The notes: a model not told the origin generated them from the sequence alone. A stretch of 64,000 bases of DNA from Candidatus Latescibacterota bacterium (GCA_965203175.1 OZ241867.1:5728001-5792000), one strand, 5' to 3'; counted from the stretch's first letter, positions 5,198 through 62,863 are shown. Numbers and translations: made by a program.

Positions 5198-5294
5198 AGC
5201 AGAAACAACATCCGCCGTCTTTTGCCTGCTGTCAATTTCTAGTACGTTGTTACGTCTCTTTTGACATCTTTCACCAATAAAAGGAGCACCCATA

Positions 5295-28696: not shown

Positions 28697-28850
28697 ATAA
28701 AAGGCTCCTTTTGAAGGGTGAGGCAAGCCCTTGGATGGGACTCGCACAACGGAAAAACTAGTGAGAGCCGCTACCTCCTTTCGAGCTCCTTGCGGAATTG
28801 AAGAATGGTGGCTAAATGGATGCTCTCCTTAAATAATTAAAATCCAACCT

Positions 28851-34729: not shown

Positions 34730-34792
34730 AGAAATTTAAGTAAGTGATTGGGACATTCCCTCTCTGCGATACGTGCCCGAAGGAAGGTATTT

Positions 34793-37141: not shown

Positions 37142-37154
37142 GAGGATCTGTGGG

Positions 37155-37215
37155 CAAAAAAATCTTGACAGCCAAGTACATATTTATTTGTTTACCCAAC
37201 TATATATTATAAAAT
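37155..37215 (+). promoter_or_regulatory. AT-rich internal promoter region
   Basis: TTGACA at 37165-37170 and TATATATTATAAAAT at 37201-37215; the -35/-10 pairing is ambiguous. Confidence 0.5.
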
Positions 37216-37362
37216 GCCCCGAAAAATCGCCGATGAAAGGAGGTTTGTAGTACCAACCACTGCACTTTTGAGCAACTCCGTAAATTCCGCCCGTTGAAGC
37301 TCTATGGCGGGCCTTTTCTTTTCACTTTTTATGTCCAGCAACTATATGAGGAGGATTTAACA

Positions 37363-38274: not shown

Positions 38275-38311
38275 ACCAAACTTTAGCAGTCTTCGTCTTA
38301 CAGTTAAGTTC

Positions 38312-38352
38312 ACAAGGGGAGGGGAATCGGTTCCCCTCCCCTTGTTTTGTTT
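38312..38352 (+). terminator. Rho-independent terminator-like hairpin
   Basis: ACAAGGGGAGGGGAA-TCGG-TTCCCCTCCCCTTGT followed by TTTGTTT. Confidence 0.85.
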
Positions 38353-38377
38353 ATGGGGACGAGAGGCAACACGCGCT

Positions 38378-40177: not shown

Positions 40178-40241
40178 GCGCGGCCCGCAGCCAGCCCGCT
40201 ATGGCATATCAATATGCAGGACGGGCTAAGGGAACACGGCT

Positions 40242-42611
40242 ATGACAATCACTCGCGCACTATGCCTCGTTATGGTGTTGGGCAATTTCGCTTTTGGCGA
40301 GCGCGTCTCGTTTAACTCTCGCTCTGCTTGGCAAGAGTGGACGCACCCGGTCGGGGCCGTGGAACTCCAAGCGACTGGTCGGATCCAGCCTGTATCCGTG
40401 CGTAAAAACATCGACGCCGTGCGCAATGCCGAGCACTTTGGCGGCGGCATCCGCAGCGTTGGCAGCAATGCCCGCGACGCGGACCACATCATGGATGGCG
40501 ACCCAGCGACTAGCTGGTCTCCCGATCCGGCCGACGGCATTGAAGACGCCTATATCGAACTCGACTTGGGCCGCTTGGTCACGGCCTCCGAAATCGTCAT
40601 TACTTTCGACAAATCCGCGCCGCCCTTTGAGTTTTTCACCATCCTGCTGTCGAGCGGCGAGAAGTTCTTTACCAACGCATTGGTGCCTGTAGAAGGCACC
40701 TTAGGCTACGGCCTCTCCAAGGGAGTTGGCTTCAATGAGAGCCACGAGCTCGTCCTCGATCCCCGCCAGCGCACCTTGGGCTTGAGCGCGTCTGGCTCGG
40801 ACGACATTGGCGGTAGCTTTGCCGATGGCAGCGGCAGCGAGTTCAAGAAATCTTCGGGCCTGATTCGCATCATTCGCATCGAACTAGCCAAGTTCGTCGA
40901 GGGTGCCGGCCTAGCCGAGATTTCGGTCTCTACTATCGGCGACAACATCTCCCTCGGGATTATTGAGCGCGGCGGCAACATCGAACTCATCACCGACTTG
41001 CAGGCCGTGCTCTCCGGCGGCGAGAACATGGTTGACGGCGATATTGTCACCAACTGGGGCATGCAGACCTACCACCAGACCCAGACCGGCTTCGATATCT
41101 TCAATCGCATCATCTTCGACCTAGGGGCCCATTACTGGATTGACCAGATTCGCATCATCGGCGAGCCAGCCGGTGCCCCGTCGCGGATTCGCAGCCGCTA
41201 CGCCAACTTTTTCTGGTACCAGCTCCTCGCTTCCGACGGCTCGATTGCTCCAGATGGTACCCTGAATTTCCACGAGATTGCCTTTGTTGACGACAGCCCG
41301 CTGAACGAGACGGATATCCGCAACTTCGACCATCAATTCGAGTTGCAGAAAATTCGCTACATCAAGCAGTATTTCCCTTCCTCCCGCCACGGCGGCCAGC
41401 GCACGGGCACCCATGGCTCCTACCGCCTCTTCGCCCTGATTAGCGAGTTCCAGATCTACGGCGAGGGCTTTCCAGCCGAGTTGCAGTTAACCTCGCCGAT
41501 CCTCGACTTAGGCGAAGCCAAGGCCCTGACTTCGGTCGAGTGGGACTCCGAGACCCCGCCCGGCACGCGCATTGAGCTGCGCAGCCGCACCGGCAATGAA
41601 GTCGTCGAGAACATTCACTACTTCGACAAGAAGGGCAAAGAGATTACCGAGCGGAAGTGGAACAAGACGCCCAAGAGCCTGCGCGGGCCGACGAAAATCA
41701 CGATTTCCGTCGGCTCGGACTGGAGCGTATGGAGCGATCCTTATGTAACTTCCGGCGCGCTCTTTAACTCGCCCTCGCCGCGCCGCTATGTCCAACTCGA
41801 CCTGCGCCTGATTTCGGACGATCCTAGCACAGCACCATCGATCAACTCCCTTCACTTGAACACGGAAAATCCCATTGCTCTCGAAACTCGCGCTGAGGTC
41901 TTCCCCAGCCAAGTCGAACCGGGTGTCAAAAAGGACTTTACGTACTTCGTCCTGCCGATCTTTGGCGGGCGCTCGCAGGGCTTTGACCGCTTGACCATGA
42001 TCGCGTCCGTGCCTATTGATTTCACCAGCCTGAAGTTGGGAGACGAGTCGGTGGAGGTCGAAATCACCCCGGTCGCCGAAGGATTTGTCGTCGATTTACC
42101 AGCCACGATCCGCCGCTCGGAGCTAATCGAGCTTTCGTTTAGCAGTATCATTTACCAAAACCAGACGCGTTTCGACCTTTTCCTCGGCAACAGTAACCTC
42201 GGCACCGACGTGCGCCAACTCGTTGACCAAGGCGATGCCAAAGCCGATGTGCCGAGTGAATCCGTCTCCGTGCAACTGCCAATCAACGACCTCCTACTGG
42301 CCAACGTCGCCCTTTCGACGCCTGTGCTGACGCCCAATGGAGATGGGATCGGCGACGAGCTAGCCATTGAATTCGACGCGCTCAAGCTGGTGACTCCGCG
42401 ACCAATTCGGGTCCATATATACGACTTGGCCGGCCGCAAAGTGCGCGCGCTCGACAGCGGCGATGGGCTCGCTCGGCGCTACCACTTTTCTTGGAATGGT
42501 CGCGACGATGTCGGTGCGCTCGTGAGGCCGGGGACTTATTTATTACAAATCGAGATCGCCGGCGATTCCGAAACCGAGACGGTGCAGCGGATCGTACCGG
42601 TGGCCTACTGA
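40242..42611 (+). CDS. Secreted protein type A (paralog of 34793-37141)
   Basis: WQEW..PVGAVEL..GRIQP, FGGGIR, ELDLGR, APPFE, TIGDNI, LTPNGDGIGD; ends VAY. Confidence 0.87.
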   Translation: MTITRALCLVMVLGNFAFGERVSFNSRSAWQEWTHPVGAVELQATGRIQPVSVRKNIDAVRNAEHFGGGIRSVGSNARDADHIMDGDPATSWSPDPADGIEDAYIELDLGRLVTASEIVITFDKSAPPFEFFTILLSSGEKFFTNALVPVEGTLGYGLSKGVGFNESHELVLDPRQRTLGLSASGSDDIGGSFADGSGSEFKKSSGLIRIIRIELAKFVEGAGLAEISVSTIGDNISLGIIERGGNIELITDLQAVLSGGENMVDGDIVTNWGMQTYHQTQTGFDIFNRIIFDLGAHYWIDQIRIIGEPAGAPSRIRSRYANFFWYQLLASDGSIAPDGTLNFHEIAFVDDSPLNETDIRNFDHQFELQKIRYIKQYFPSSRHGGQRTGTHGSYRLFALISEFQIYGEGFPAELQLTSPILDLGEAKALTSVEWDSETPPGTRIELRSRTGNEVVENIHYFDKKGKEITERKWNKTPKSLRGPTKITISVGSDWSVWSDPYVTSGALFNSPSPRRYVQLDLRLISDDPSTAPSINSLHLNTENPIALETRAEVFPSQVEPGVKKDFTYFVLPIFGGRSQGFDRLTMIASVPIDFTSLKLGDESVEVEITPVAEGFVVDLPATIRRSELIELSFSSIIYQNQTRFDLFLGNSNLGTDVRQLVDQGDAKADVPSESVSVQLPINDLLLANVALSTPVLTPNGDGIGDELAIEFDALKLVTPRPIRVHIYDLAGRKVRALDSGDGLARRYHFSWNGRDDVGALVRPGTYLLQIEIAGDSETETVQRIVPVAY

Positions 42612-42651
42612 GGGGACTGCTTTTGCCACCTTACAGCAAAAAGGACCTGCG

Positions 42652-44433
42652 ATGACCCGTGCCGCACTCGCATTAGCCTGCCTAGCGATGGGATATAGCA
42701 CTCCGGCCGTGGCCGCGGAACGGCTCAAAATAGGCGGCGATGGACTGGAGTGGGAGGGCAACTCGATCGTCTTCAACGCACTCGAAGTCACCGACGAAAG
42801 GGGGCTTTCGCCGCTGGAGGCCGACCCCGAGGAAAACATCCTGCCGCGCATCAAGGAACTCGGCGGCAGCGCTGAAACCTCGGTGACCACGGCCGCTGCG
42901 CGTTCCAGATATATAATCAACGAACTCATCGACGGTGACTACAGAACAGGCTGGCGCGTGTACACCAACCCCAACGGTGCCGAACTCAAAGTCGATATGG
43001 GCGCTATCTTCGTCCTCCATCGCCTCTATTTTCGCCGCGGCGTGCTCAACGACGACGAGCGCTCGCTACGCGGCTACGAGTTCTACGCCAACGATGGCGA
43101 TTCGCTCAACTTCATCGGCGGCAATCCCGTTTACGCGCTCATAGCACAAGACCGCTCGCACGGCCTGCCCGAACTGGACCTGAGCTTTCCGCCGACGCAA
43201 GTGCGCTTCTTTATTTTGCGCAGCACGGGCGAACGCGGCTTCCAGATGGGCGACCTCGAAGTTTTTGGCGTCGGCGTCGCGCCCTTTGCCCAGTACATAT
43301 CGCAAGTGATTGACCTAGGTGAAGCGGCCAACTTCGGGCCGGTCAATGTGTATGGCCGCATCGACGGCACCGCTCAAGCCCAGTTCAGCACCAAAACCGG
43401 CTTCGTCGCTACGGACTCGCTCTACTTTCGCCAGACGGGCATTCCCGGTGAATTCGAGGAAGTGGCCCTAGCGGATTTCGACCGTACACTCGACCCCTCG
43501 TACGCCGGCATCGTCCTCGAAAACGACCGCGATTGGAGTGCGTGGTCCCCGCCCTACGCCGAACTCCTCGGATCGCCGATCAATTCGCCGGACAATCGGC
43601 GCTACCTCCAGTTGCAATTCAAGCTCCTGTCGAACAGCTTGCTCGACAAAGCCGCCATTGACTCGGTGGTTTTCAACTACACGGTGCCGTCCCTCGCCGA
43701 TTCGGTCATTGCTGAAATAAGCCCGGCCACGGCGACCTTAGGGCAGGAGAACGAATTTACCTATCATCTGCGCTCGGTCGTCTCAAGCGGCAACCGCGGC
43801 TTTGACACCGTGATCATCCACACTCCGTTTGCAGCCCGCGCCACGGGCGTGCGCGTCGATGGCGTCGAGATTGACAACTTTACCACGGCGTCCGATTTGG
43901 GTCGCTTACAGGTGAGCTTTCCCGACCAACGCATTACCCGCAGTGGCCAAGAAGTCGCTGTGCGCTTCGCCAGCCTAGTAACCGTCTCTGGCACGGAATT
44001 TCGCGGCGAGGTCGCCGACAGCCAATCCGATGCGTTTCCACAGCGAGTCGCCTTTGGCAACGCGGCCGAGGAGGTTACCGACAACACACTCGTCGTCAGT
44101 GCCCGCATCGACGACGAGCTTTTTACCGGCGTCGTGTTCTCGTCTGCGGTAATCACGCCCAATGGCGACGGCATCAACGACCAGATCTCCCTCGACTACA
44201 TCCTGCTCAAGGCGACCCACGAGGTCGAAGTCGAGGTGGTCGTGTACGACTTGAGCGGCCGGCCGGTGCATCGCCTCTACAAAGCCCGCGATCGCTCCGG
44301 CCCCAACCAAGTTAGTTGGAACGGTCGCGACGACGACGGTACCGTGCCGCCGGGTATGTACTTGCTTCGCCTCAAGGCCGCCACCGACGCTGGCATCGCC
44401 ACGCAGATGCGGAGTATCGCCGTAGTGTACTGA
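42652..44433 (+). CDS. Secreted protein type B (paralog of 38378-40177)
   Basis: LRGYEFY, SQVIDLGEAANFG, DWSAWS, SPDNRRY, ITPNGDGIND; ends VVY. Confidence 0.87.
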   Translation: MTRAALALACLAMGYSTPAVAAERLKIGGDGLEWEGNSIVFNALEVTDERGLSPLEADPEENILPRIKELGGSAETSVTTAAARSRYIINELIDGDYRTGWRVYTNPNGAELKVDMGAIFVLHRLYFRRGVLNDDERSLRGYEFYANDGDSLNFIGGNPVYALIAQDRSHGLPELDLSFPPTQVRFFILRSTGERGFQMGDLEVFGVGVAPFAQYISQVIDLGEAANFGPVNVYGRIDGTAQAQFSTKTGFVATDSLYFRQTGIPGEFEEVALADFDRTLDPSYAGIVLENDRDWSAWSPPYAELLGSPINSPDNRRYLQLQFKLLSNSLLDKAAIDSVVFNYTVPSLADSVIAEISPATATLGQENEFTYHLRSVVSSGNRGFDTVIIHTPFAARATGVRVDGVEIDNFTTASDLGRLQVSFPDQRITRSGQEVAVRFASLVTVSGTEFRGEVADSQSDAFPQRVAFGNAAEEVTDNTLVVSARIDDELFTGVVFSSAVITPNGDGINDQISLDYILLKATHEVEVEVVVYDLSGRPVHRLYKARDRSGPNQVSWNGRDDDGTVPPGMYLLRLKAATDAGIATQMRSIAVVY

Positions 44434-44522: not shown

Positions 44523-47138
44523 ATGCGCAAAGTTATGTTCTGGGGGCTTGCCCTGCTGGTCCTAGCCGTTGTAGCGTCCAGCGTCCAAGCGGCGACCCCG
44601 GGGCGCGAGCGCGGCGCCACCTCGCAGGTTCGGATCGAGGGCTTCGACCCACTGATCCCGACCATGCGCAAGTGGTACGTGCCCCAAGATCTCTACTACA
44701 TCTATAATTGGGGAGGCTACAAGTACACCAACTACGCCAAGGAACCGTATCAGCGCTACGTCAGCACGCAGCTAGAGGGCACGGGCCAGTACGACATTTT
44801 CGGCAACTGGATCACCCGTGGCTGGCGCGTCTACGAGTGGCGCCAACAGCAGCCGCTGGCCTTTGGCAGCTCGGTCTTCAAAGACAGCCGCTTCAGCGGT
44901 TGGTTTCAAAACCTAATCGTGGCCGCGGACTCCAAGGGCCAGTACTACTCCGCTCTGACCGTCGGCGACTACATCCGCACGACCCTGACCCCACTGACCT
45001 TCAGCCGCTCGCGCTTCAACGGCGTCCAGTGGGACTTTGCGTCCGATAAGTACGAGGCTACGGTGCTGCTGTCGCGCGTCAATCAGCCGGTAAGGGCGGT
45101 ACAGGGGGCCAACCGAGTGCAAGACACGGACTTCACCAACTTCGTCGGCCTGCGCGGTACTGCCCAAATCGGCGATTTCATGGGCTTAGGAGTCACGTAT
45201 GTCAATACGAACTTCGGCTCGGCGAGTAGCAATTTCTCGGAAAACTCGCGCGCCGGCTTGCTGACCAGCAGCCAGAATTCGGGTAACGTCACCGAAATCG
45301 TCATCCGCATCTCCGACGACTCGCCCGGCGATGGCTCCGGTGCTCTATTCTTTTCGGCGCAGATGATCGTCGATGGCCAAGAGACCTCTGTTAATCCCAC
45401 CATTGAGGGCGGCCGTCAGCGCGAGGGCTTCCTCGAAGCCCTCGAAGAGGCTCCGATCCTCCTCCGCTACCGGGTGCCCGACCCGCTGGTGGTGCAAAAG
45501 GTCAGCTACGCCATGGTGCTCTCCAACGACTACCGAGTGGAGATTACCTCCAACTTGCAGACTAATATCAACGGCCAGCCCATCTTCTTGCCAGTCACCC
45601 GCTCCGAAGGCAACGTACGCGACAACACCAACCAGCGCGTCGTCCGCTTTGACTACGGACTGCCCTCGGCCAACCAAATCGCCAGCGTGGACTTGACCAT
45701 CGAGGATATATGGGGCCTAGAGGTGCGCGGCGAATTTGCGCGCAACACCCAGTTTCAGCGCTATCCCAACATCAACATCCAGAAACTGAGCAACCTCAAA
45801 AAGAGTGACCGCACAGCCGATGCTTGGTTTGTCAACGCCACGCGCCGCGTGGGCCGCTACTTTGGCTACGGCGAGGTGTTCAGCATGGACCACGGGTACA
45901 CCACGCGCGGGTACATCACCGACCAAAACGATGTCGTGGATTACGAAAACCAGCGCCAGAACTGGTTCGAGTACATCGACGACAACGATGATCAAGACCA
46001 GCTCGTCGATTGGCCGCGCTGGGGTGGTGCGGGCGGCGACAACGCCGTCTTCCCCGGCCTCGACGAAAACAACGATTTGCTCTCGGATTTCAACGAAAAC
46101 TCCAATCTCACCCCGGACTACGAAGAGCCATTCTTGCGCCACTACATCGACCCACCCGATTTCCTCTTCGGCGTCGATATGAACCACAACACCGTGGTGG
46201 ATCGCTTTGAAAACGACGACGAGGCCGACTATCCCTACCGCAAGGGCCATCGCGGCTGGAACGCGTACGGCGGGACCGAGATTTATCCAGGGGTCAATAT
46301 CACCGTAGGTCGCAATCGCGAGTGGCTGATCGCCGGCGAGGAGCGGTCAACAGCCGTGTACGCGGTGCTCAGCGCGGTGCGCGATATTTCTAGGACGGGC
46401 AAGTTCGAAGCCTTTCACATGATCAAGTCCGTCGAGGACAACATCGCCGACAACCTGCTGCAATGGGTGCAGCGCCCCGGCTCCATTGGCGGCTTGCAAC
46501 CTTTTGACGACCCCCTAATCACCAAAAACACCATCGTCAATCAGAGCTTCATCGGCTACAAGTACACCCGTGGCAACCTGACCTTTGCCAACAAGTTCCG
46601 CCTCGATCACTTCAATCAGCGAGACGAAGCAGCCGAGCGCCTCCGCGACAGCGCGTTCTACGGTGTGATCAACAAGGCGGACTATCCGTTTTCCATCGGG
46701 CGCAATATCACCTTGATCCCGCGCTGGAAAAACATGTGGCGCAAGCGCACCCAACCGCGCACCGTCCAGCTTGAGATCAACGAATTGAGCGAAATTTTCT
46801 CCCTGTCCGCCGTGTTCCCGGTGCTGACGAGAAGCCGCGTCGAGGTCGGGGTGGAAGCCGTAATCTTTCGCAATGCCGAGGAGATCCCCGACCCGCTGCC
46901 GCCCGAATACATCGATGACTTCATCGGCAAGGTGTTCACCGTGCAGTACACCAATCGAGTGCAGTATCAAGGGTACAGCATCACATCCAACGTTGGCTTT
47001 CAGGTCAACGACATCAACTTTGCCAACCTCTCCGACCAAGACGTGAGCAATACCATTGCCTTTATCGAGCTCTATGCTGGGCTAGAGGAGGAGCGCTTGG
47101 GAGGTCGGCCAGCCGAAAGAAGGGGATGGAGCTTCTAA
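44523..47138 (+). CDS. Large secreted protein, candidate outer-membrane beta-barrel with Ca-binding-like loops
   Basis: Signal peptide; alternating beta-strand patterns (FVGLRGTAQIG, LGVTYVN, VEVGVEAV, FIELYAG); DxDxD-like loops; terminal Phe. Confidence 0.6.
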   Translation: MRKVMFWGLALLVLAVVASSVQAATPGRERGATSQVRIEGFDPLIPTMRKWYVPQDLYYIYNWGGYKYTNYAKEPYQRYVSTQLEGTGQYDIFGNWITRGWRVYEWRQQQPLAFGSSVFKDSRFSGWFQNLIVAADSKGQYYSALTVGDYIRTTLTPLTFSRSRFNGVQWDFASDKYEATVLLSRVNQPVRAVQGANRVQDTDFTNFVGLRGTAQIGDFMGLGVTYVNTNFGSASSNFSENSRAGLLTSSQNSGNVTEIVIRISDDSPGDGSGALFFSAQMIVDGQETSVNPTIEGGRQREGFLEALEEAPILLRYRVPDPLVVQKVSYAMVLSNDYRVEITSNLQTNINGQPIFLPVTRSEGNVRDNTNQRVVRFDYGLPSANQIASVDLTIEDIWGLEVRGEFARNTQFQRYPNINIQKLSNLKKSDRTADAWFVNATRRVGRYFGYGEVFSMDHGYTTRGYITDQNDVVDYENQRQNWFEYIDDNDDQDQLVDWPRWGGAGGDNAVFPGLDENNDLLSDFNENSNLTPDYEEPFLRHYIDPPDFLFGVDMNHNTVVDRFENDDEADYPYRKGHRGWNAYGGTEIYPGVNITVGRNREWLIAGEERSTAVYAVLSAVRDISRTGKFEAFHMIKSVEDNIADNLLQWVQRPGSIGGLQPFDDPLITKNTIVNQSFIGYKYTRGNLTFANKFRLDHFNQRDEAAERLRDSAFYGVINKADYPFSIGRNITLIPRWKNMWRKRTQPRTVQLEINELSEIFSLSAVFPVLTRSRVEVGVEAVIFRNAEEIPDPLPPEYIDDFIGKVFTVQYTNRVQYQGYSITSNVGFQVNDINFANLSDQDVSNTIAFIELYAGLEEERLGGRPAERRGWSF

Positions 47139-48433
47139 AGCCGCAGATGGCGGTCTTGGCCTTGGGATTGTGGGCCTGCGCCGACGCGCCGCCAGAAAGT
47201 GCGTCGGCGGTCTTGGCCCGAGTGGGCGAAACCGAGATTAGCGAGCGAGATTTTGCCGCTGCCTTGGAAAAGCTGTCCGACGGCAGCGAAGCCCAGCCCC
47301 TTGCGGATTGGCGTCGCCAATTTCAGGCCCTCATCGACAAGGAACTCCTGCTGATCGAAGCCCGCGCCCAAGGGTTAGACGAAGCGGTCGCCGGTGCAAT
47401 GGAGGCTTGGGAGCGCAAAGAACTGGTCGAGGAATTGCTCGTGCGCGAGATCGGCGAACAGTTTGCTCATGCAGAAACTGAGCTAGCGGAATTCTTTGCC
47501 GAATCGGGTGCGGCCCGCGAAATTCGCCTGCGTCGCTTGCCCGTACGCGATCGGGCTGCAGCTATGGAGGCCCTTAGAAAGGTTCAAGCGGGGGTGGATT
47601 TGGCCGGAGAGTGGAGCGAGAGCGGGTGGCTCAACGCGCTCAACGCGGGCGATGCGCGCATGGCCGCTCTGTTCCTGCAGGAAGTGGGGACTGTTGAGTT
47701 GGTGGAAACTGATGGGCAGTTTTTGGTGGTAGCCATTGCGGCCGAGCGCGAGGTCTCGTTGGCAGATCGCCGCTCGCTCGTGGAAGCGGCCCTAGACCGA
47801 CACAAGAAGCAACAGGCGAACTTGGCTTATCTAGAGAGATTGACCGGTCAGTACGCAGTGCAGTTAGACACGGCCGCGTTGCGGCAGGTCGCCACAGGTA
47901 CAGCACGGCCAGAAATGCGGTTGGTCCGCAGTGCCGCGGGCGATTGGAGCGCGGCGGACTACCAGCAGGCCCTCGCCCGACTCGGAGCGGACGCCGGATC
48001 GCAGCCGACCGATGTCAGCGCCCTTGGATTCAAGGTGACGCGGGCCTTTGTCGCCGACCAGATTCTGCCGCAGGAGGCGCGCAAGCACGGTCTGTACGCC
48101 GAGTTGGAGCCACGCCGTGCCAAGGTGCGCGCAAAGAAGCTGATCCAAGCCCTGTGGGAGCGAGAAATTTACGCGCACATCCAGCTTGACCCCGCGCAGG
48201 TGCGCGCCTTTTACGAGGCCAACGCGCAACGCTACGCCCGCTCGGGCGCGCTAGGGCGGGAACTACAAGCGCAAGTCGCGCGCGATTTGCGCGACGCGCA
48301 GGCCGCGCCCCTGTTCGACCGCTACATCGAGCAATTGCGCGAGAAATACGCCGCGGTTGTCGCCGTAGATGAAGGGCAGTTCGGGAAATTTGTCTCCCAA
48401 CGCAGACAGGCTGCAAATCCCGTCGAGCTATAA
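47126..48433 (+). CDS. SurA/PpiC-like chaperone lipoprotein (degenerate parvulin domain)
   Basis: Lipobox LWAC; VLARVGE..I; LIDKELLLIEARAQGL; same architecture as 11395-12960 and 23566-25191. Confidence 0.75.
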   Translation: MELLKPQMAVLALGLWACADAPPESASAVLARVGETEISERDFAAALEKLSDGSEAQPLADWRRQFQALIDKELLLIEARAQGLDEAVAGAMEAWERKELVEELLVREIGEQFAHAETELAEFFAESGAAREIRLRRLPVRDRAAAMEALRKVQAGVDLAGEWSESGWLNALNAGDARMAALFLQEVGTVELVETDGQFLVVAIAAEREVSLADRRSLVEAALDRHKKQQANLAYLERLTGQYAVQLDTAALRQVATGTARPEMRLVRSAAGDWSAADYQQALARLGADAGSQPTDVSALGFKVTRAFVADQILPQEARKHGLYAELEPRRAKVRAKKLIQALWEREIYAHIQLDPAQVRAFYEANAQRYARSGALGRELQAQVARDLRDAQAAPLFDRYIEQLREKYAAVVAVDEGQFGKFVSQRRQAANPVEL

Positions 48434-48455
48434 GTCCGTCAGAGAGGAGTGTTCT

Positions 48456-49220
48456 ATGTACGCTTACCAAAAAATTTCCATCCTCGCTGCTGCGGCCCTC
48501 TTGTTGGGCTGCGGCCATTACCTAATCCCCGGGCGGTTTCAGCCCTTAGAGGTGGCCCAGCAGCAGACCGATATTCAAGGGTCGAGCATGAAAATCCTCG
48601 ACGACGGCACGGTCACCTTCGTGCAAAACCGCCTTGAAGTGTCCGTGCGGCCCATGACCGACGAGGAGATCAACCGCCAGTACCCGGCCGAGTCCACTAA
48701 CGCCAGCGGTCCGGCCGACGAGCTGCCGTCCAATCCGTTTACCTATGGCAATTGGATCGACCCGCGCACGGGCCAGGCACCGCAGCGTTTGTCCATCTTC
48801 AAGATCACGGTCAAAAACTACGAATACCCCAAAGTCAAGTTCGATCCGCTGATGGTGACCGTGGAGTCGGCCAATGGACGGCGCTATTATCCTTGGGGAA
48901 GTTATGACGTGGAGGAGTACTTCCGGCGTTTCCCCCTGGCCTTCAACGGCCTGGGCTATTTGCGCTACAACGAGCGCCGCGGCCTCTATAACCTAGCCAA
49001 GTACCCAGACGACGAGTTTTGCTTTTCAGGACAAGAGGTTGAAGGCTATGTGATCTTCTCCAAGATCCACGACGATGTCGCCGAGATCGCCGTCGAGATT
49101 CCCGAGTTCGGGCTGCGCTACAACTTCCGCGACGAACCCATAGAAACCATTGACCTCCACTTCCGTTTTAAGCGCGACATCAAAAAGGTCAAAAACATCG
49201 ACAAGGTGGCGGCCAACTAG
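48456..49220 (+). CDS. Lipoprotein of unknown function
   Basis: GAGGAG RBS; start MYAYQK; lipobox LLGC. Confidence 0.8.
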   Translation: MYAYQKISILAAAALLLGCGHYLIPGRFQPLEVAQQQTDIQGSSMKILDDGTVTFVQNRLEVSVRPMTDEEINRQYPAESTNASGPADELPSNPFTYGNWIDPRTGQAPQRLSIFKITVKNYEYPKVKFDPLMVTVESANGRRYYPWGSYDVEEYFRRFPLAFNGLGYLRYNERRGLYNLAKYPDDEFCFSGQEVEGYVIFSKIHDDVAEIAVEIPEFGLRYNFRDEPIETIDLHFRFKRDIKKVKNIDKVAAN

Positions 49221-49246
49221 CTAGACAGGCCAAGCTGAATAGCCTA

Positions 49247-49273
49247 GGGGCAGGCTACGGCCTGCCTCTTTTT
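49247..49273 (+). terminator. Rho-independent terminator-like hairpin
   Basis: GGGGCAGGC-TACG-GCCTGCCTC-TTTTT. Confidence 0.75.
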
Positions 49274-49301
49274 CTGTCCGGTGCCCGACACGCGTTCATC
49301 A

Positions 49302-52300
49302 ATGCTGACTAAATTCCTCCTGTTTGCCACCGCGGCCTTCTTCCTGCTATCGGTCACAGCCTTTGATCCGGCCACCATTTCGCGCTGGATTGAACGAGCC
49401 ATCGGCTGGGTGCCACTGCGCGAAGCGCCAGCGACCGATGAAGCACCCTCCCTGCGCGAAGCCGTCGCGCAAATAAACGCCACCGATCTAGAGCGCCACC
49501 TCCGCATCCTCACCGCGGATTCATCCCGCGTCACCGGCTATGCGGGGGCCGCGAACGCGGCTCGCTATATCGAAGGGGAATTCCACCGCCTCGGCCTCCG
49601 AGTCACCAGCGAACTTTTCCCCCTTTCCGTTCCCCTAGATCGCGGTGGTCGGCTGCGCTTGGGCGGTTCGGACGTAGCCTTTCCCATCTACGGATTGTGG
49701 CCCAACCACGTGCGCTCACCGTCCCTGCCACCGGGCGGTGTCTCCGGCCACCTCATAGACTTGGGGCGCGGCAGCTTAGCCGAGATGGATGGGCAACGGC
49801 TAGCGGGCAGCATTGCGCTGATGGGATTTGGCTCGGGCAACGCCCACGTCGAAGCGCGGTCCTTGGGCGCGCAGGCCATTCTGCTGTACGACGATGGCCG
49901 CGTCACGCGCAGCGAGGCCGCGGAAAAATTCCTCCAAGTGCCCGTGGACATCCCGCGCTTTTGGGTAGAAGCGGCGGACGCGGAAATCCTGCGGCAGCAA
50001 GCGCGCAGCGGCGACGCACAGGTGCATCTCGAAGCGCGCATGGAGTGGGAGCAGGTCCAGGCGCGCAATATATTCGCCGTCCTCCCGGGTTTGGCCGAGG
50101 ATATGCCGCGCGGTCAGCGCCGCGAAATCCAGCAGTGGGACGAGCAAATCATCGTCCTGCAAGCGCACTACGACGCGATCTCGGTCGTCCCCGCACTCGC
50201 CCCTGGAGCCGAAAGCGCGACCGGCATGGCCGCGCTGCTCGAGATCGCGCGTTTGCTCGTCGCCGAAGGCACCCGCTACACCGTGCTCTTTTTGGCCACC
50301 CCCGGGCACTTTCAGGGCTTGGCCGGCGTCAACGATTTCCTCTACCGCCATGCGCGCAAAAGCGAACATTTCCGCGACCAGATCCCACCTGCCGAGCGCA
50401 TCGACTTCCGCCTCTTTGTCGGCCTTGACTTGGCCAGCTACAGCCCTCGGGTCGGCAGCTTTACCATGGGAACGTTCTACAACTCGGCTTGGCGCAACGA
50501 CGACTATCAGAAGAACCTGATGGCGCACTACGCCTCGCGCTTTGCCCGCTATAACCGCGAAATTTTCGCCGACTCGGCTCGCTACCAAGACGCCGTAGCT
50601 CCGCAGAAGCGGGTGTGGAAAAACTTCATGCCCGTGCGGCTGGCCCTCGACAGCGAGGCCGCGGCCTTCGTGGGCAAAGAGGCGCTCTCTTTCGTCACGC
50701 CCAACCAACTGCGTCAGCGCGTCGATACGCCCCTCGACCGGCTCGAATTTGTCGCGCTCGACAACCTCGCCGAACAGACCCGCACCATAGCCGGGCTGAT
50801 GCTCAAGGCCGCTGCCGATCCGGACTTTTTCAACGACACTAAGCTGACCCTGCGCGATTGGGGGCACAGCCTAGAGGGCAACATCTACTGGTTCGACCGC
50901 GACGTGAATTTCGCCGTGCCCAAGGCCCCAGTGCCCAACGCCCTCGTCACCTATCTCCAACCCGGTCCCAATTCCGTGGCCGGCGTGCGCACGCTTATGG
51001 CCACGCACGGAGACGAGAACGGCTACTTCAAGTTCGACATTGTGCGCAACCGCTTTGCCAACCGGATCCAAGCCTTTGAACTAGACGAATACGGGCGCAT
51101 TGTCTCCGCGCCCGACCTCGGCGAAGAAGGCGACAAAACCTATCCGGGTACCCAGCCGTATGGCTGGTGGGAAAACCGCATGTTGCAGGTCCTCTTTCGC
51201 TGCCGCGCCCTGAGCTTCTTGGAAGTGGTCGATCCGCGCTATCTATCGGCCATGGACCGCGTCAACGTCCTCGGCACCAACGACGCGCCGCCGCGCTCTT
51301 TTTCTCTCAACTACATCGAAAACCAGAGCGCAGTGCAGGACCGGGTGGTGCAGGCCGGCGTGGTGTTTGCCGAGCCAGGCACCCGCGTCAAGATCCTCGC
51401 CGGCGAGGGGGCCTTTGGCGGCGAGAGCGCGCTCGCCGGCGTGCGCTACATGCTCACCAACGCGGACTCCGCCTTGTTCGCCGACCTCGATCCAGCCCAC
51501 GTCGATATGGCGACCATTGAGCGGGCACAGGGCGGGGGCTTCCCAGTCGAACAGGGCCTTATTCCCTACCCGGCGTTGCAGGCGGCCCGCGACATCTGGA
51601 TCATCGACGAGGCGCGGATCAAACAAATGGTGCGCCACGGCATCGTTCTCGAACAGCTACAGGCCATGCACGGCCAAGCGCGGGAGGCCCTGATCGAGGC
51701 TCGCGACAAACTCGCGGCCTTCGATTACACCGGCTACCAGCGCGCCGTGCGCCGCGCCCTCGGGCTAGAGGCCCGCATTTACCCGGAAGTCAAGGCCACC
51801 GCCAACGACGCGGTCCGCGCAGTGATTTTCTACTTCGCGCTCCTGTTGCCCTTTGCCTTCTTCTGCGAGCGATTCTTCTTCGGCTTCCCAGACGTGCGGC
51901 GGCAAATCGCCGGCTTTGTCGGCATCTTCGTCCTCGTGTTTCTGATCTTGCGCTTCGTTCATCCGGCCTTCAAGCTGAGCAGCTCGCCGTACATCATCTT
52001 CCTCGCGTTTGTCATCCTCGCCTTGGGTGTCCTCGTCATCTTCATCGTCGTCACCCGCTTCAAGGCGCTTCTGCAACGGCGCAAGGGCGCAGTCTCGGGC
52101 GTGCACGAGACCGACGTGGGCCGCATTGCCGCGGGTTTTGCAGCCGTGCTGTTGGGCATCTCCAACCTGAGCAAACGCCGCCTGCGCACCGCGCTGACGG
52201 CCGCTACTCTGACCTTTTTGACCTTTACCGTCAATTCCTTTACCTCGGTCAAATCCAGCCTCGACTTCTATCGCCTGCCGCGCGACACCTCGCCCCTGTA

Positions 52301-53927
52301 CGAGGGCGGCCTCATCCGCGACCGCGCCTGGCGCGGCATGCAGGATTCCATCTTGGACTACGTGCAGAGCGCGTTCGGCGACCGCGCCTTGGTCGTGCCG
52401 CGCGCCTGGTACTTGTCGCCAGTCGAATCCGAACGAGCCTATATCGACTTTGTCGCCACTCCAACCGGCGCGGCCAGTTTCGCGCACGGCTTGGTGGGCC
52501 TACAGCCGGCTGAAGCCGAGGTCACGGGCCTCGACGCGCACATCTCGGCGGGCCGCTTCTTCGCCGCGGGCGATGACAAGACAGTCATCTTGCCCGACAG
52601 CCTAGCCGCGCTCGTCGGCATTGGCCCCGAGGACGTGGGCACGGCTTCCATCGCGCTCTACGGCGAGGAGTACCAAGTCATCGGCCTGTTTGACAGCGCA
52701 GCCCTGAAAGAAGTCCTCGATCTCGATGGCGAGCGCCTAACGCCCGTGGATACGGTCAAAGACGCCGGCCTCATCACGCGCGAGAGCACCGAAGATCCGC
52801 GCGCCTTGGCCGCCACCGCGGTCGAGACCTTCAACCACCTCGAAGTAATCAACACGCTCTTCTTGCCCTATGAGCGGGTCCGCGCCATGGATGGCCGCCT
52901 GCGCTCCATCGCCATTGCCGCGGACGCAGACGACCCAGAATTCGTCCGGCGCGTGGAGTCCTTTATGTCGCGGGTGGCCTTGACCCTGTTCGTCGGCCAA
53001 GGCGACCGCGTCGTGGCCTACAGCTCGATTGGCTCCACCGAAATAAGCGGGGCCGGCCAGCTTTTGGTGCCGGTGATCATCGCCGCCTTGATCGTGCTCA
53101 ATACCATGATGGGGGCCGTGTATGAGCGCGTGCGCGAAATCGGCATCTACAGCGTCGTGGGCTTGGCCCCCAGCCACATCGGCCTGCTGTTTTTGGCCGA
53201 ATCCACGGTCTTTGCCACCTTTGGCGCGGTGGTCGGCTACGCCCTAGGCCAAATCGCCCATCTGTTCATGCTGCAATACGGGCTGCTCGCCGGCCTGACG
53301 CTCAACTACTCGTCGCTCTCCGCAGTATGGGCTACGGTAGTAGTCATCGGCACGGTCTATTTATCGACCTTGTATCCAGCGCGCATGGCGGCCAACATGG
53401 CCGTCCCAGACGTGACGCGGCAATGGCAATTCCCTCCCCCCGTTGGCGACCACTGGCGCTTTGACTTTCCCTTCACGGTCGGCGGAGCCGAAGTCCCGAG
53501 CATGTACGTGTATCTCAAGTCGGTCTTCGCCGCGTATGGTGAAGGCTCGATCGGCGATTTCATCGCCCGCGACGTCGATTTATCCGTCACCACCGACGGG
53601 CCGGAGCCATCCTACGCCATTGCCATGCGCACTTGGCTGGCACCCTACGACTTGGGTATCAGCCAGCAGGTGCGCCTACAGGCAACTCCCACCGGCGAGC
53701 ACCACATCTACAAAATCGAGACCCACATCGAGCGCCTCAGCGGCGACGTGGCCTCTTGGCAGCGGATGAATCGCAAATTCCTCAACGTGCTGCGCAAGCG
53801 ATTCCTCGTCTGGCGCACCCTAGCACCGGGGATCCGCCAAGAGTACCGCGAGCGCGTGTCATCCGAATTTACCCCCAATGCTGAAGACGCACAGCATACC
53901 CTCAGTAGCGCCGGACAGCCGACATGA
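49302..53927 (+). CDS. Giant membrane protein: degenerate peptidase M28-like ectodomain + FtsX/MacB-like permease
   Basis: SRVTGYAG; AHYDA..APGAESATG.AALLEIAR; NLSKRRLRTALT; ISAGRFF; VLNTMMGAVYERVREIGIYSVVGLAP..LFLAES; LYPARMA. Confidence 0.88.
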   Translation: MLTKFLLFATAAFFLLSVTAFDPATISRWIERAIGWVPLREAPATDEAPSLREAVAQINATDLERHLRILTADSSRVTGYAGAANAARYIEGEFHRLGLRVTSELFPLSVPLDRGGRLRLGGSDVAFPIYGLWPNHVRSPSLPPGGVSGHLIDLGRGSLAEMDGQRLAGSIALMGFGSGNAHVEARSLGAQAILLYDDGRVTRSEAAEKFLQVPVDIPRFWVEAADAEILRQQARSGDAQVHLEARMEWEQVQARNIFAVLPGLAEDMPRGQRREIQQWDEQIIVLQAHYDAISVVPALAPGAESATGMAALLEIARLLVAEGTRYTVLFLATPGHFQGLAGVNDFLYRHARKSEHFRDQIPPAERIDFRLFVGLDLASYSPRVGSFTMGTFYNSAWRNDDYQKNLMAHYASRFARYNREIFADSARYQDAVAPQKRVWKNFMPVRLALDSEAAAFVGKEALSFVTPNQLRQRVDTPLDRLEFVALDNLAEQTRTIAGLMLKAAADPDFFNDTKLTLRDWGHSLEGNIYWFDRDVNFAVPKAPVPNALVTYLQPGPNSVAGVRTLMATHGDENGYFKFDIVRNRFANRIQAFELDEYGRIVSAPDLGEEGDKTYPGTQPYGWWENRMLQVLFRCRALSFLEVVDPRYLSAMDRVNVLGTNDAPPRSFSLNYIENQSAVQDRVVQAGVVFAEPGTRVKILAGEGAFGGESALAGVRYMLTNADSALFADLDPAHVDMATIERAQGGGFPVEQGLIPYPALQAARDIWIIDEARIKQMVRHGIVLEQLQAMHGQAREALIEARDKLAAFDYTGYQRAVRRALGLEARIYPEVKATANDAVRAVIFYFALLLPFAFFCERFFFGFPDVRRQIAGFVGIFVLVFLILRFVHPAFKLSSSPYIIFLAFVILALGVLVIFIVVTRFKALLQRRKGAVSGVHETDVGRIAAGFAAVLLGISNLSKRRLRTALTAATLTFLTFTVNSFTSVKSSLDFYRLPRDTSPLYEGGLIRDRAWRGMQDSILDYVQSAFGDRALVVPRAWYLSPVESERAYIDFVATPTGAASFAHGLVGLQPAEAEVTGLDAHISAGRFFAAGDDKTVILPDSLAALVGIGPEDVGTASIALYGEEYQVIGLFDSAALKEVLDLDGERLTPVDTVKDAGLITRESTEDPRALAATAVETFNHLEVINTLFLPYERVRAMDGRLRSIAIAADADDPEFVRRVESFMSRVALTLFVGQGDRVVAYSSIGSTEISGAGQLLVPVIIAALIVLNTMMGAVYERVREIGIYSVVGLAPSHIGLLFLAESTVFATFGAVVGYALGQIAHLFMLQYGLLAGLTLNYSSLSAVWATVVVIGTVYLSTLYPARMAANMAVPDVTRQWQFPPPVGDHWRFDFPFTVGGAEVPSMYVYLKSVFAAYGEGSIGDFIARDVDLSVTTDGPEPSYAIAMRTWLAPYDLGISQQVRLQATPTGEHHIYKIETHIERLSGDVASWQRMNRKFLNVLRKRFLVWRTLAPGIRQEYRERVSSEFTPNAEDAQHTLSSAGQPT

Positions 53928-61088: not shown

Positions 61089-61268
61089 ATGGACGTCGAA
61101 ACTTGGAAAGTCCTGTGGCAAATCGTCTTTATCGCCGCCAGCGTCCTCTTTTACGGCATTGTCATCGCCGTCGCCTACAAGGCCTTTGGCGACGTGGTCA
61201 AGATGATCCGCAACATGGCCGCCGGCCGCGGGGCCAGCGAAGCCGCCGCTGACTCCGAGCGCGCGTGA
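61089..61268 (+). CDS. Small single-TM protein (59 aa), probable SSF accessory subunit; absent from the ORF track
   Basis: MDVETWKVLWQIVFIAASVLFYGIVIAVAYKAFGDVVKMIRNMAAGRGASEAAADSERA*; GGAG RBS; GTGA overlap with the next gene. Confidence 0.75.
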   Translation: MDVETWKVLWQIVFIAASVLFYGIVIAVAYKAFGDVVKMIRNMAAGRGASEAAADSERA

Positions 61269-62863
61269 CGCGGCGCACCCTCTTGGGAGCTGCTTTAGCG
61301 TGCCTGTGGGCCGCGCTGGGCCGCGCCGAGGTGCAGTTTGTCGAGGTGGCAGCCGAGGCCGGAATCGCCTTTCGCCATCAGAATGGAGCCAAGGGACAAA
61401 AGTATCCAATGGAGACCATGGGCTCGGGCACGGCCTTTTTCGACTACGATGGCGACGGGTGGCTCGACCTATACTTCGTCAACAGCGTCGGACCGGGCGC
61501 ACTCTACCGCAACGCGAGCGCCGGTCAGTTCACCAATGCAACCGACCAAGCCGGCGTAGCCAATTCGGGCTACGGGTTGGGCTGTGCCGCAGCCGACTAC
61601 GACTCAGACGGCGACTTGGACTTGTACATCACTGCCTACGGCCCCAATATCCTCTACCGCAACGAGGGCACTAGCCGGTTCGCCGATGTCACCGACCAAG
61701 CTGGCGTGGCCGGGCCAGTCCTAGTCAATCCAGCGATGAGTACAGGCGCGGCCTTTGCCGACTACGATTTGGACGGCGACTTGGATTTCTTCGTCGCCAA
61801 TTACGCCAAGTTTCGCCCCGAGATACACGAGCCCTGCATCCGCTCCGGCGGGATTGCGGTGTACTGCGGGCCAGAGGCCTTTGAGCCGCAGCGCGACGTG
61901 TTTTATCGCAACGCAGGCGACGCTACTTTTGCCGATGTCACCGAGGAAGCCGGGCTGCTGTCGGATGCCGCCAAGGAATTAGGGGCCTTTTTCATCGACT
62001 ACGATGCAGACGGCGATCTCGACCTGTACGCGGCTGGCGACCGCACCCCTAACTTGCTCTACCGCAACGACGGCGGCCGCTTTGCCGAGATCGGCGCTTT
62101 AGCCGGGGTCGCTTACAACGACGCGGGCAAGCCGCTGGCCGGCATGGGGGTTGACGTGGGCGACTACGATGGCGACGGCCGGTTTGACTTCTTCGTCACC
62201 AATTACCAGTGGGAAACCAACAGCCTGTACCGCAACCTCGGCAACGGGTTTTTCGCCGACGTGACCTTTCAGTCCGGGCTAGGGGTCCCCAGCTTGCAGT
62301 TCCTCGCGTGGGGCACCCTCTTCATCGACTACGACAATGACGGCGACCGCGACCTGTTTGTCGCCAACGGCCACCTCGACGACAACATCCACCTGTTCGA
62401 CGCCGTGACGTATGAGCAGCAAAACCAACTCTTCCGCAATCAGGAGGGACGCTTTGCCGACGTGAGCAATCAGGTGGGACCGGGCTTGCTGTTGCGGCAA
62501 GTGAGCCGCGGCGCGGCCATGGGCGATTACGACAACGACGGCGACCTCGATATCTCAGTAGCCAACAACAACCAGCCAGCCGCCCTCTTGCGCAACGACG
62601 GCGGCAACTCCCAGCACTATTTGAGCTTGCGGTTGGTTGGGGACTCCGTCGGGGCCGAGATCCGCGTTGCCGCGGGCGACTGGGTCCGGTGGGATGTGGT
62701 GCGCGCCGGATCGAGCTACATGTGCCAAAGCGCACTGCGCCCCTTTTTCGGGTTGGGAGATCGCACCCGCGTCGACGAGGTGGAAATCCATTGGCCCAGC
62801 GGCACTGTGCAGCGCTTACAAGACGTCGCAGCCGACCAGATCCTGACTGTGTACGAGCCTTGA
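61265..62863 (+). CDS. ASPIC/UnbV FG-GAP (CRTAC1-like) secreted protein
   Basis: Signal peptide; ETMGSGTAFFDYDGDG; YCGPEAF; NYQWETNSLY; FFGLG..WPSG. Confidence 0.92.
   Translation: MTRRTLLGAALACLWAALGRAEVQFVEVAAEAGIAFRHQNGAKGQKYPMETMGSGTAFFDYDGDGWLDLYFVNSVGPGALYRNASAGQFTNATDQAGVANSGYGLGCAAADYDSDGDLDLYITAYGPNILYRNEGTSRFADVTDQAGVAGPVLVNPAMSTGAAFADYDLDGDLDFFVANYAKFRPEIHEPCIRSGGIAVYCGPEAFEPQRDVFYRNAGDATFADVTEEAGLLSDAAKELGAFFIDYDADGDLDLYAAGDRTPNLLYRNDGGRFAEIGALAGVAYNDAGKPLAGMGVDVGDYDGDGRFDFFVTNYQWETNSLYRNLGNGFFADVTFQSGLGVPSLQFLAWGTLFIDYDNDGDRDLFVANGHLDDNIHLFDAVTYEQQNQLFRNQEGRFADVSNQVGPGLLLRQVSRGAAMGDYDNDGDLDISVANNNQPAALLRNDGGNSQHYLSLRLVGDSVGAEIRVAAGDWVRWDVVRAGSSYMCQSALRPFFGLGDRTRVDEVEIHWPSGTVQRLQDVAADQILTVYEP

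Follow-up and report, generated by a model that had tools for sequence, protein, structure and literature searches.

The stretch of DNA analyzed here comprises 64,000 nucleotides from a Candidatus Latescibacterota bacterium (GCA_965203175.1 OZ241867.1:5728001-5792000) and is referred to below as the window. It contains a gene for a large membrane protein (P0001, the target) that joins an M28 peptidase-like ectodomain to an FtsX-type permease module. The gene is one open reading frame (ORF) on the plus strand, positions 49281 to 53927, with 1,548 codons when translated from GTG 49281; from ATG 49302, the start used in a preliminary description of this DNA, it encodes 1,541 amino acids. Residue numbers given here follow the 1,548-residue form. 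Of the two, ATG 49302 is more likely to be the start, given a terminator-like hairpin with a T-run at positions 49246 to 49269 (+), between the upstream lipoprotein gene and the target, and the gene is thus best placed at 49302 to 53927. The hairpin has a 10-pair stem with 7 GC pairs and a TTTTCT tail; one such site was found against 0.8 expected, which makes it only suggestive. Its position suggests that the target and the two genes that follow form their own transcription unit. The first of these, P0002 (53924 to 55834, +), encodes a polytopic membrane protein with the domains of unknown function DUF6785 and DUF6784, and its start overlaps the target ORF by 4 nucleotides (ATGA); the second, P0003 (55838 to 57820, +), encodes a polytopic membrane protein of 660 amino acids and begins 3 nucleotides further on.

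The peptides quoted in the preliminary description are present in the translation at about residues 287 to 385 (about 50140 to 50435), and Pfam recognizes two families in the target, namely, Peptidase_M28 at residues 288 to 421 (E = 6.2e-9; score 36.3 bits, cut-off 21.3) and FtsX at residues 1265 to 1373 (E = 1.9e-11; score 44.5 bits, cut-off 25.5). Seven transmembrane (TM) helices were predicted by a hydropathy scan, at residues 8 to 26, 844 to 862, 876 to 894, and 905 to 923 and three inside the FtsX domain; an eighth, the weakly hydrophobic first helix of the FtsX module at about residues 968 to 990, was read from the sequence. By analogy with the topology of solved MacB, both large soluble regions would be periplasmic and the C-terminal tail cytoplasmic. 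The protein can thus be divided into seven consecutive parts, all on the plus strand: (i) TM1 or signal anchor (residues 8 to 26; 49302 to 49358); (ii) a periplasmic ectodomain of PA and M28 fold with a remodelled metal site (residues about 53 to 515; 49437 to 50825); (iii) one or more beta-rich domains followed by a long helical stalk that leads into TM2, as judged from model secondary structure (residues about 523 to 843; 50847 to 51809); (iv) three extra helices, TM2 to TM4, delimited by hydropathy and conservation (residues 844 to 923; 51810 to 52049); (v) an amphipathic helix preceding the membrane, FtsX TM1, and a MacB-like periplasmic core domain (residues about 945 to 1247; 52113 to 53021); (vi) the FtsX domain with TM6 to TM8 and a conserved ER-x-REIG cytoplasmic loop, identified by Pfam, profile alignment, and fold matches (residues 1265 to 1373; 53073 to 53399); and (vii) a cytoplasmic alpha+beta tail domain that is specific to the family and is not an ATPase (residues 1376 to 1520; 53406 to 53840). 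Part (iii) had no Pfam match at E ≤ 10, and the fold searches barely tested it.

This architecture is found in a large family. Of 7,996 entries scored in a full-length search, at least 700 proved to be relatives of the target at E ≤ 1e-3, and the best 120 of these are 49 to 95% identical to it and nearly all between 1,460 and 1,625 amino acids long. The ectodomain alone retrieved 1,862 clusters (50% identity) at E ≤ 1e-3, 667 of them at E ≤ 1e-30, and these matches mostly reside in proteins of 1,450 to 1,800 amino acids; judged by these cluster matches, the domain assignments are far beyond chance. In the databases the relatives are named "FtsX-like permease family protein," "M28 family peptidase," or "hypothetical," and their taxon labels are mainly Latescibacteria/Latescibacterota, with some Gemmatimonadetes, Planctomycetota, and Handelsmanbacteria; among the clusters of 10 distant representatives, the one taxon name given was Latescibacteria. 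A pattern search of genome contigs gave 599 matches, 524 of which encode a relative, and from these 80 loci were retained for the comparisons below. The source genome (one contig of 6.58 Mb, C1) carries seven paralogs of the target. In four relatives of 2,450 to 3,050 amino acids (P0125, P0127, P0128, and P0218), the M28 domain is preceded by a long N-terminal extension that contains Big_5 (bacterial Ig-like) or LysM domains. Our literature search found no paper on this M28-FtsX family, none naming DUF6785 or DUF6784, and none joining nicastrin with prokaryotic M28 homologs.

An AlphaFold2 model of residues 29 to 870, made from a 35-row alignment, reached a pLDDT of 84 and a pTM of 0.84. In a Foldseek search of the PDB with the ectodomain model, bacterial PA-domain M28 aminopeptidases came first (2ek8 at 6.8e-24, PaAP, and BSAP), followed by the transferrin receptor and GCPII; the top 50 of the structural searches include aminopeptidases, glutaminyl cyclases, the transferrin receptor, and GCPII. 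All of these matches cover model residues of about 25 to 500 and thus leave residues 523 to 843 effectively outside. By both sequence and fold the ectodomain belongs to the M28 family (PF04389).

The active site of this family is altered in the target, as seen in a MAFFT alignment with three canonical M28 proteins encoded in the source genome and in HMMER alignments with 2ek8. The five cocatalytic zinc ligands (His, Asp, Glu, Asp, and His) correspond to H296, E311 in place of Asp, F344 in place of Glu, D383, which is kept, and S458 in place of His, and the position of the general-base Glu is taken by the invariant His343. Expressed in motifs, HxD becomes H296-x-D298, where D298 is invariant and residue 296 is His in the target and its near orthologs and Tyr or Phe in most relatives; GAxD-N becomes GA-E311-S312 and is one residue shorter; Glu-Glu becomes the invariant H343-F344; the equivalent of Asp179 is the invariant D383; and SDH becomes D457-S458-E459, where position 458 is a variable Ser, His, Asn, or Cys and E459 is invariant. 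E311 pairs with the ligand Asp in the MAFFT and phmmer alignments, while the hmmsearch alignment puts the gap elsewhere. The preliminary description had read GAES in place of the M28 motif GAxD, which these alignments confirm; it had also reported that the catalytic Glu-Glu is replaced by Gly-His, and here the loss of Glu-Glu stands but the residues do not, since Glu-Glu aligns with His343-Phe344 and the Gly is the preceding residue. No variation was seen at E311, H343, F344, D383, or E459 in 35 aligned homologs (49 to 95% identity). A profile survey of the family (316 domain hits, many of them partial) revealed the canonical site pattern in 0 of 274 proteins; the di-zinc site, for which the preliminary description had asked that the ligands be checked, is absent from the target and these relatives alike. 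The commonest patterns at positions 296/298/311/343/344/383/459 were YDEHFDE (78 of the 316 hits), HDEHFDE (38), and FDEHFDE (20). Since the substitute residues are themselves conserved, the site is remodelled rather than decayed. The alignments thus indicate that the di-zinc aminopeptidase site is gone family-wide and that its replacement is under strong selection, and we read the remodelled site as a ligand-binding site.

The same conservation also bears on another reading, which we regard as rather unlikely: that the ectodomain is an active hydrolase with a noncanonical, probably mononuclear metal site, in which His343 would act as the general base and E311, D383, and E459 as carboxylate ligands, and which would trim periplasmic peptides or amides whose products are taken up by the DUF6785 and P0003 proteins. 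Three points favor it and weigh against a purely ligand-binding role. The replacement residues H343, E311, D383, and E459 are invariant, not drifting, and fit such a catalytic site; H296, E311, and D383, which correspond to one of the two zinc sites and could make up a single metal site, are retained in the target and its near orthologs; and PDB entry 2anp, the top match of a profile of the M28 core and of one fold search, is an E151H variant of the Aeromonas aminopeptidase that its title calls functional. On the other side, most family members have Tyr or Phe at position 296, the equivalent of Glu152 is Phe, and the last His is replaced by a variable Ser, His, Asn, or Cys, so that neither canonical metal site is complete family-wide.

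The preliminary description had further proposed a possible kinship with nicalin and nicastrin. Nicalin, in the BOS complex, and nicastrin, in gamma-secretase, are M28-fold subunits that lack a canonical catalytic site and form part of membrane complexes. In its full form this proposal makes the ectodomain a prokaryotic, inactive M28 subunit of the nicastrin/nicalin lineage that acts as the substrate-recognition lid of a permease which has no ATPase and is coupled to OPT-like transporters. The missing catalytic residues agree with it, and so does a short motif. With residues 286 to 335 alone, nicalin was the best match among solved structures (E = 1.2e-4, 25.5 bits), the next being 2ek8 at E = 0.9; the loop that separates HxD from GA is equally long in nicalin and the target, and both have a GA-[D/E]-S arrangement with the acidic residue one position before the canonical ligand. 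A profile restricted to the M28 core (24 sequences) scored nicalin at 2.9e-6 over 53 residues, level with the Aeromonas aminopeptidase (2.6e-6 for the E151H variant and 4.9e-5 for the wild type), and nicastrin at a nonsignificant E of 1.3 (11.9 bits). The motif likeness named in the preliminary description thus holds in part.

Beyond this motif the data point elsewhere. The full family profile ranked 2ek8 first (2.3e-14), with YwaD at 1.5e-7, the Aeromonas aminopeptidase at 1e-5 to 3e-4, nicalin at 1.5e-4 over 61 residues, and the PA region of the transferrin receptor at 3e-4, and thus favors a bacterial PA-M28 aminopeptidase over nicalin by 10 orders of magnitude; nicastrin gave no match to it at E ≤ 10 among solved structures. 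Neither nicastrin nor nicalin appears among the 50 rows shown in each fold search (Foldseek against the PDB and two further ones). The membrane architecture is also different: nicastrin and nicalin are single-pass type I subunits, whereas the target has an N-terminal anchor, seven further TM helices, and an FtsX module, and its partners differ. Whole-domain sequence and the modelled fold thus place the ectodomain with the bacterial PA-M28 aminopeptidases, and the likeness to nicalin appears confined to a motif of about 40 residues (37 to 61, depending on the search). As no closer affinity to nicastrin or nicalin than to generic M28 proteins is apparent at the level of the domain, common descent beyond this motif is not established, and we consider the lineage proposal highly improbable; two of its other parts, the OPT-like transporters and the missing ATPase, are taken up below. 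A functional analogy, in which an M28 fold without its canonical site serves a membrane complex, is reasonable.

The C-terminal half of the protein resembles MacB-type permeases. An AlphaFold2 model of residues 841 to 1548 reached a pLDDT of 72 and a pTM of 0.43, with TM2 to TM4 below 65; mediocre as it is, it shows the domains clearly, and with it Foldseek retrieved MacB at 4e-12 as well as LolCDE, YtrEF, HrtBA, YbbAP, and BceAB. The module has the four FtsX helices and the periplasmic core domain between the first and the second that define type VII permeases. The preliminary description had thus been right to describe an M28-fold ectodomain without a canonical site fused to a MacB/FtsX-type permease, which the two Pfam matches and the fold matches bear out, and a candidate for the coupling element that it recommended looking for is the ER-x-REIG cytoplasmic loop, which is invariant in the aligned homologs and is matched to its counterpart in MacB and YtrF by profile alignment. 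In solved MacB-type structures, the equivalent loop contacts the ATPase. TM2 to TM4 are highly conserved, including E863-R864 and H894-P895, but lie outside the Pfam FtsX match, and the fold matches of the C-terminal model begin after them. The possibility that the N-terminal half holds a degenerate second FtsX repeat was dropped, though not disproved, when hhalign of residues 780 to 945 against 1200 to 1385 gave nothing (probability 0.1%). No part of the protein is more conserved than the cytoplasmic tail (residues 1376 to 1520); a language-model (Atlas) search with this tail returned no usable match.

The two downstream membrane proteins appear to be related to each other. P0002 matches DUF6785 (E = 2.4e-111) and DUF6784 (E = 1.1e-24), while P0003 has no Pfam or NCBIfam family; an hhalign comparison of the two families gave a probability of 89.7% (E = 1.8e-6 over 323 columns), and P0003 is probably a distant homolog of DUF6785, although pairwise BLAST between P0002 and P0003 was not significant (E = 0.18). 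Profiles of both proteins compared with solved structures gave nothing meaningful.

Their linkage to the M28-FtsX genes is close. Sixty-two loci extend for at least 3 kb on either side of the gene, and in 59 of them a P0002-like gene, a P0003-like gene, or both occur within 3 kb (19 P0002-like only, 23 P0003-like only, and 17 both), and two of the three exceptions have such a gene at 3.2 to 4.3 kb. In the source genome, a DUF6785-like gene is found no more than about 3.5 kb from each of the seven paralogs, and each of the five P0003-like genes has a paralog within 10 kb; P0003-like genes were found only beside M28-FtsX genes. Natural fusions point in the same direction. The own-genome paralog at C1:2862405-2868803 is a single ORF of 2,132 amino acids with M28, MacB_PCD, FtsX, DUF6785, and DUF6784 domains, and when the DUF6785 part of the fused protein P0190 (residues 1480 to 2120) was searched, 35 of the 37 database matches were fusions of FtsX (with or without M28) to DUF6785 (with or without DUF6784), about 1,200 to 2,160 amino acids long and 52 to 100% identical. 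Following the Rosetta-stone argument, such fusions suggest that M28-FtsX and DUF6785 proteins work as one unit. Synteny and fusions together make a strong case for the coupling of the target to its two downstream partners, in agreement with the preliminary description. A complex prediction for the P0003 family with residues 835 to 1000 of P0001 scored 0.01, which speaks neither for nor against contact.

The partners had also been described as OPT-like, a label that these searches do not sustain. Neither partner matched OPT (PF03169) in Pfam or NCBIfam even at E ≤ 10, and PF03169 was not detected at E ≤ 1e-10 in 31 related genomes. The only OPT signal came from Atlas, in which the partners had language-model feature scores of 0.76 to 0.78, below the mark of 0.9, to "peptide transporter" clusters, one of them with 31% OPT Pfam annotation. 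OPT-likeness is thus a weak lead, and this counts against the nicastrin/nicalin proposal in so far as that relies on OPT-like transporters.

The absence of an ATPase gene alongside the target, noted previously, holds well beyond this locus. No ABC ATPase was detected in the window, either among ORFs of at least 200 amino acids or by a motif scan, and in the source genome the nearest of 58 ORFs with Walker A and ABC signature motifs lies 10,091 bp from any of the seven paralogs, none of which therefore has one within 10 kb. Across 81 sequences (the 80 loci and the window), such an ORF was present within 10 kb in only 2. That the other 79 sequences and all seven paralogs lack one nearby favors the idea that the FtsX module is an ATP-independent scaffold in a machine that is either driven by the proton motive force via the DUF6785 and P0003 proteins or static, with the cytoplasmic tail in the place of the ATPase; the tail is specific to the family, extremely conserved, and leads straight into DUF6785 in the fusions. 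Against this idea, the coupling-loop motif is conserved, and other FtsX permeases of the source genome lie far from ATPases: the genome has 49 FtsX matches, and the separation of FtsX permeases from ATPases is normal there. At C1:2060276-2110757, for example, about 14 tandem-FtsX permeases (~800 amino acids, ADOP-like) lie beside only two MacB-type ATPase genes, which they share.

The two exceptional loci, L046 and L055, provide a candidate for the energy source. Both have a co-directional series of genes for M28-FtsX, a P0003-like protein, a soluble protein, a small FtsX protein of 228 to 229 amino acids whose periplasmic loop spans only some 40 residues, and an ABC ATPase of 254 to 255 amino acids. 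The soluble protein (323 to 354 amino acids; L046:17574-18545 and L055:7999-9063), encoded between the P0003-like and small FtsX genes, has no TM helix, signal peptide, or family assignment that we could find; a relative is encoded at C1:6287901-6288809 of the source genome, after the P0003-like gene of one paralog. The source genome also contains orthologs of the small FtsX (58% identical to the clustered ones) and of the ATPase (77%, the next-best ATPase being 53%), which form a pair beyond the window, at C1:5900281-5901776, some 118 kb away from the target. The neighbors of this pair are glycosyltransferase genes and a TauE-family gene, not cell-division genes, and the small FtsX scores as MacB/LolCE-like, with 25 to 32 bits against cut-offs of 225 to 255 for cell-division FtsX. 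Another ATPase considered as a trans partner, C1:3778476-3779225, is now the second choice because the ATPase of the pair at 5900281 is closer to the clustered ATPases (77% against 53%). It is a stand-alone MacB/LolD-type protein encoded between uvrB and an E1 dehydrogenase gene with no permease nearby, and it is the closest paralog (53 to 54% identity) of the system-clustered ATPase.

The distribution of the two gene sets was then compared in a phylum sample of 81 genomes. The small FtsX is present as a single copy in 62 genomes and the M28-FtsX tail domain in 67, with 1 to 8 copies each; 61 genomes have both genes, 13 have neither, and 7 are discordant, all of the latter being 57 to 89% complete. 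In five genomes with a single M28-FtsX copy (G033, G035, G044, G059, and G040, from three GTDB families), the M28-FtsX and small FtsX genes are 3.5 to 4.4 kb apart on the same strand, and the four of these regions that were examined all show the full order DUF6785, M28-FtsX, P0003-like, unknown, small FtsX, and ATPase. The full-cluster loci are L046 (of which L104 is a duplicate), L055, L105, L106, and L107, all from single-copy genomes and together representing three GTDB families. Five further genomes, reached via the loci, contain one small-FtsX ortholog each. The pair is thus linked where there is one copy of the large subunit, and it is an unlinked single-copy pair where the large subunit is multiplied. 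This is the pattern that a shared motor would give, and the seven paralogs of the source genome could share one small FtsX/ATPase pair. Considering that the pair clusters with M28-FtsX in single-copy genomes of three families and that the two gene sets co-occur, we judge an ATP-independent scaffold decidedly unlikely. The existence of a candidate cognate ATPase also speaks against the ATPase-less permease of the nicastrin/nicalin proposal, and the term "orphan," applied to the permease in the preliminary description, is probably wrong for the system as a whole.

We therefore favor, with a confidence slightly better than even for the chain as a whole, the interpretation that the target is the large subunit of a hetero-oligomeric, MacB/LolCDE-like mechanotransmission machine of the type VII ATP-binding cassette (ABC) class that is powered by a shared ATPase. 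Energy would come from the single-copy pair of a small FtsX subunit without a periplasmic domain and a MacB/LolD-type ATPase, in an assembly that may resemble LolC/LolE/LolD2, with the large subunit, the small subunit, and two copies of the ATPase. ATP hydrolysis would move the FtsX helices and, through them, the MacB-like periplasmic core domain and the M28-like domain. The latter most likely does not work as a standard aminopeptidase but receives or handles a ligand, perhaps a peptide-like amino terminus, and may pass its substrate to or from the DUF6785 and P0003 membrane proteins, so that the periplasmic and M28-like domains would act on a periplasmic ligand together with these partners.

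Several observations, in addition to the catalytic potential of the remodelled site, weigh against this interpretation. (i) Clustering with the small FtsX and ATPase genes is seen only in single-copy lineages, 75 of the 80 loci of the first round are devoid of an ATPase-like ORF within 10 kb, and the pair could have a housekeeping role of its own. (ii) The 13 genomes that lack both genes all belong to one family (f10); as relatives are not independent, these double absences amount to one evolutionary event. (iii) The model of the C-terminal half is mediocre and does not define the domain packing.

The surroundings of the gene in the source genome consist to a large part of paralogous sets. There are about 56 DUF6785/6784 genes, mostly beside outer-membrane-protein-like genes; about 60 relatives of the 871-amino-acid protein encoded upstream of the target, which has a signal peptide and a C-terminal ...GWSF and is outer-membrane-barrel-like; 17 relatives of the 283-amino-acid lipoprotein (lipobox LLLGC); and about 14 CBM9-like genes. 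These sets tend to lie together and resemble nutrient-uptake loci, only 7 of which include M28-FtsX; examples in the window are found at 25773 to 27683 (-), 27779 to 28747 (-), 44523 to 47138 (+), and 48369 to 49220 (+). Directly upstream of the cluster, at 34748 to 44433 (+), are four tandem genes for secreted F5/8-type-C (discoidin) proteins with CHU_C/Por type IX sorting tails, and the same stretch includes a CBM9-like gene (37294 to 38274). The window further encodes five FG-GAP/UnbV_ASPIC proteins (3131 to 5611, 14320 to 15948, 20374 to 23457, 28887 to 32084, and 61265 to 62863), three of which are fused to long TPR arrays, and two proteins with FGE-sulfatase domains (176 to 880 and 33689 to 34600). 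Because of the large paralog sets (DUF6785, 871-amino-acid protein, lipoprotein, and CBM9-like) and the upstream F5/8-type-C proteins, this genomic setting suggests a role in nutrient acquisition. To our knowledge, however, every MacB/LolC/FtsX-type system characterized so far works outward from the inner membrane, whether for efflux, the extraction of lipoproteins, or the activation of hydrolases, and each has its own ATPase.

A more far-reaching version of our interpretation, which we put forward as speculative and consider unlikely, is that of a six-gene envelope machine composed of DUF6785, M28-FtsX, P0003, the soluble protein, the small FtsX, and the ATPase. Here, the ATP-driven FtsX hetero-pair would mechanically operate a pseudo-aminopeptidase receptor and load substrate into a new family of polytopic transporters, in a MacB-type system for nutrient uptake rather than export; the large subunit would be multiplied, in seven copies, around one motor; and the nicalin-like motif would reflect a true shared origin with the inactive M28 subunits of eukaryotes.

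Whatever its direction, the system is a variant of type VII ABC systems that is not described in any paper we found, and it departs from those characterized in three respects. (i) A conserved family joins an FtsX-type module to a remodelled aminopeptidase fold. (ii) The family is coupled to the large, uncharacterized polytopic family DUF6785/6784, which offers a specific way into the function of two uncharacterized domains. (iii) One motor may serve many interchangeable large subunits. It also offers, in uncultured Latescibacterota-like bacteria, a test case for the recruitment of pseudo-enzymes as receptors in bacterial envelopes, with eukaryotic parallels in nicastrin, nicalin, and the transferrin receptor.

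Among known systems, those closest to the ectodomain are the PA-M28 aminopeptidases of Aneurinibacillus (AM-1, 2ek8), B. subtilis (BSAP/YwaD, 6hc6), and P. aeruginosa (PaAP, 8ac7), which have the same fold and the same PA-in-M28 arrangement and with which we group the Aeromonas/Vibrio proteolyticus aminopeptidase (1rtq/1amp). The target shares with these canonical enzymes the HxD motif, the Asp179 equivalent, and the Asp of SDH, but Glu-Glu has become His-Phe, GAxD has become GAES, and the last His is gone; in addition, its domain is membrane anchored and followed by about 1,000 more residues, including the FtsX module. Nicalin and nicastrin are likewise membrane-tethered M28 ectodomains without a canonical site within a membrane complex, and nicalin shares the motif AHYDA..V.P.L..GA[DE]S..G...LLE.ARL; they differ from the target in topology, partners, and energy module, and there is no domain-wide preference for them. 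The transferrin receptor and GCPII (M28B) are eukaryotic, single-pass proteins with a C-terminal helical dimerization domain and no permease attached.

The permease part is closest to MacB, LolCDE, YtrEF, HrtBA, and FtsEX, with which it shares the four-TM FtsX module, the MacB-like periplasmic core domain, and the conserved cytoplasmic loop, and the likely hetero-pairing of two different FtsX subunits recalls LolC/LolE. Unlike in this group, the module lies between a huge pseudo-peptidase ectodomain with three extra TM helices on its N-terminal side and a novel cytoplasmic tail on its C-terminal side, the partner FtsX subunit is nearly devoid of a periplasmic domain, polytopic proteins of the DUF6785 type are associated with or fused to the system, and the ATPase is unlinked and apparently common to the paralogs. 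The ADOP duplicated permeases (TIGR03434), whose name carries the meaning "orphan," are also FtsX-type proteins that occur in large paralogous sets and usually away from an ATPase gene; they possess two FtsX domains and no M28 domain, whereas the target combines one FtsX domain with a pseudo-peptidase.

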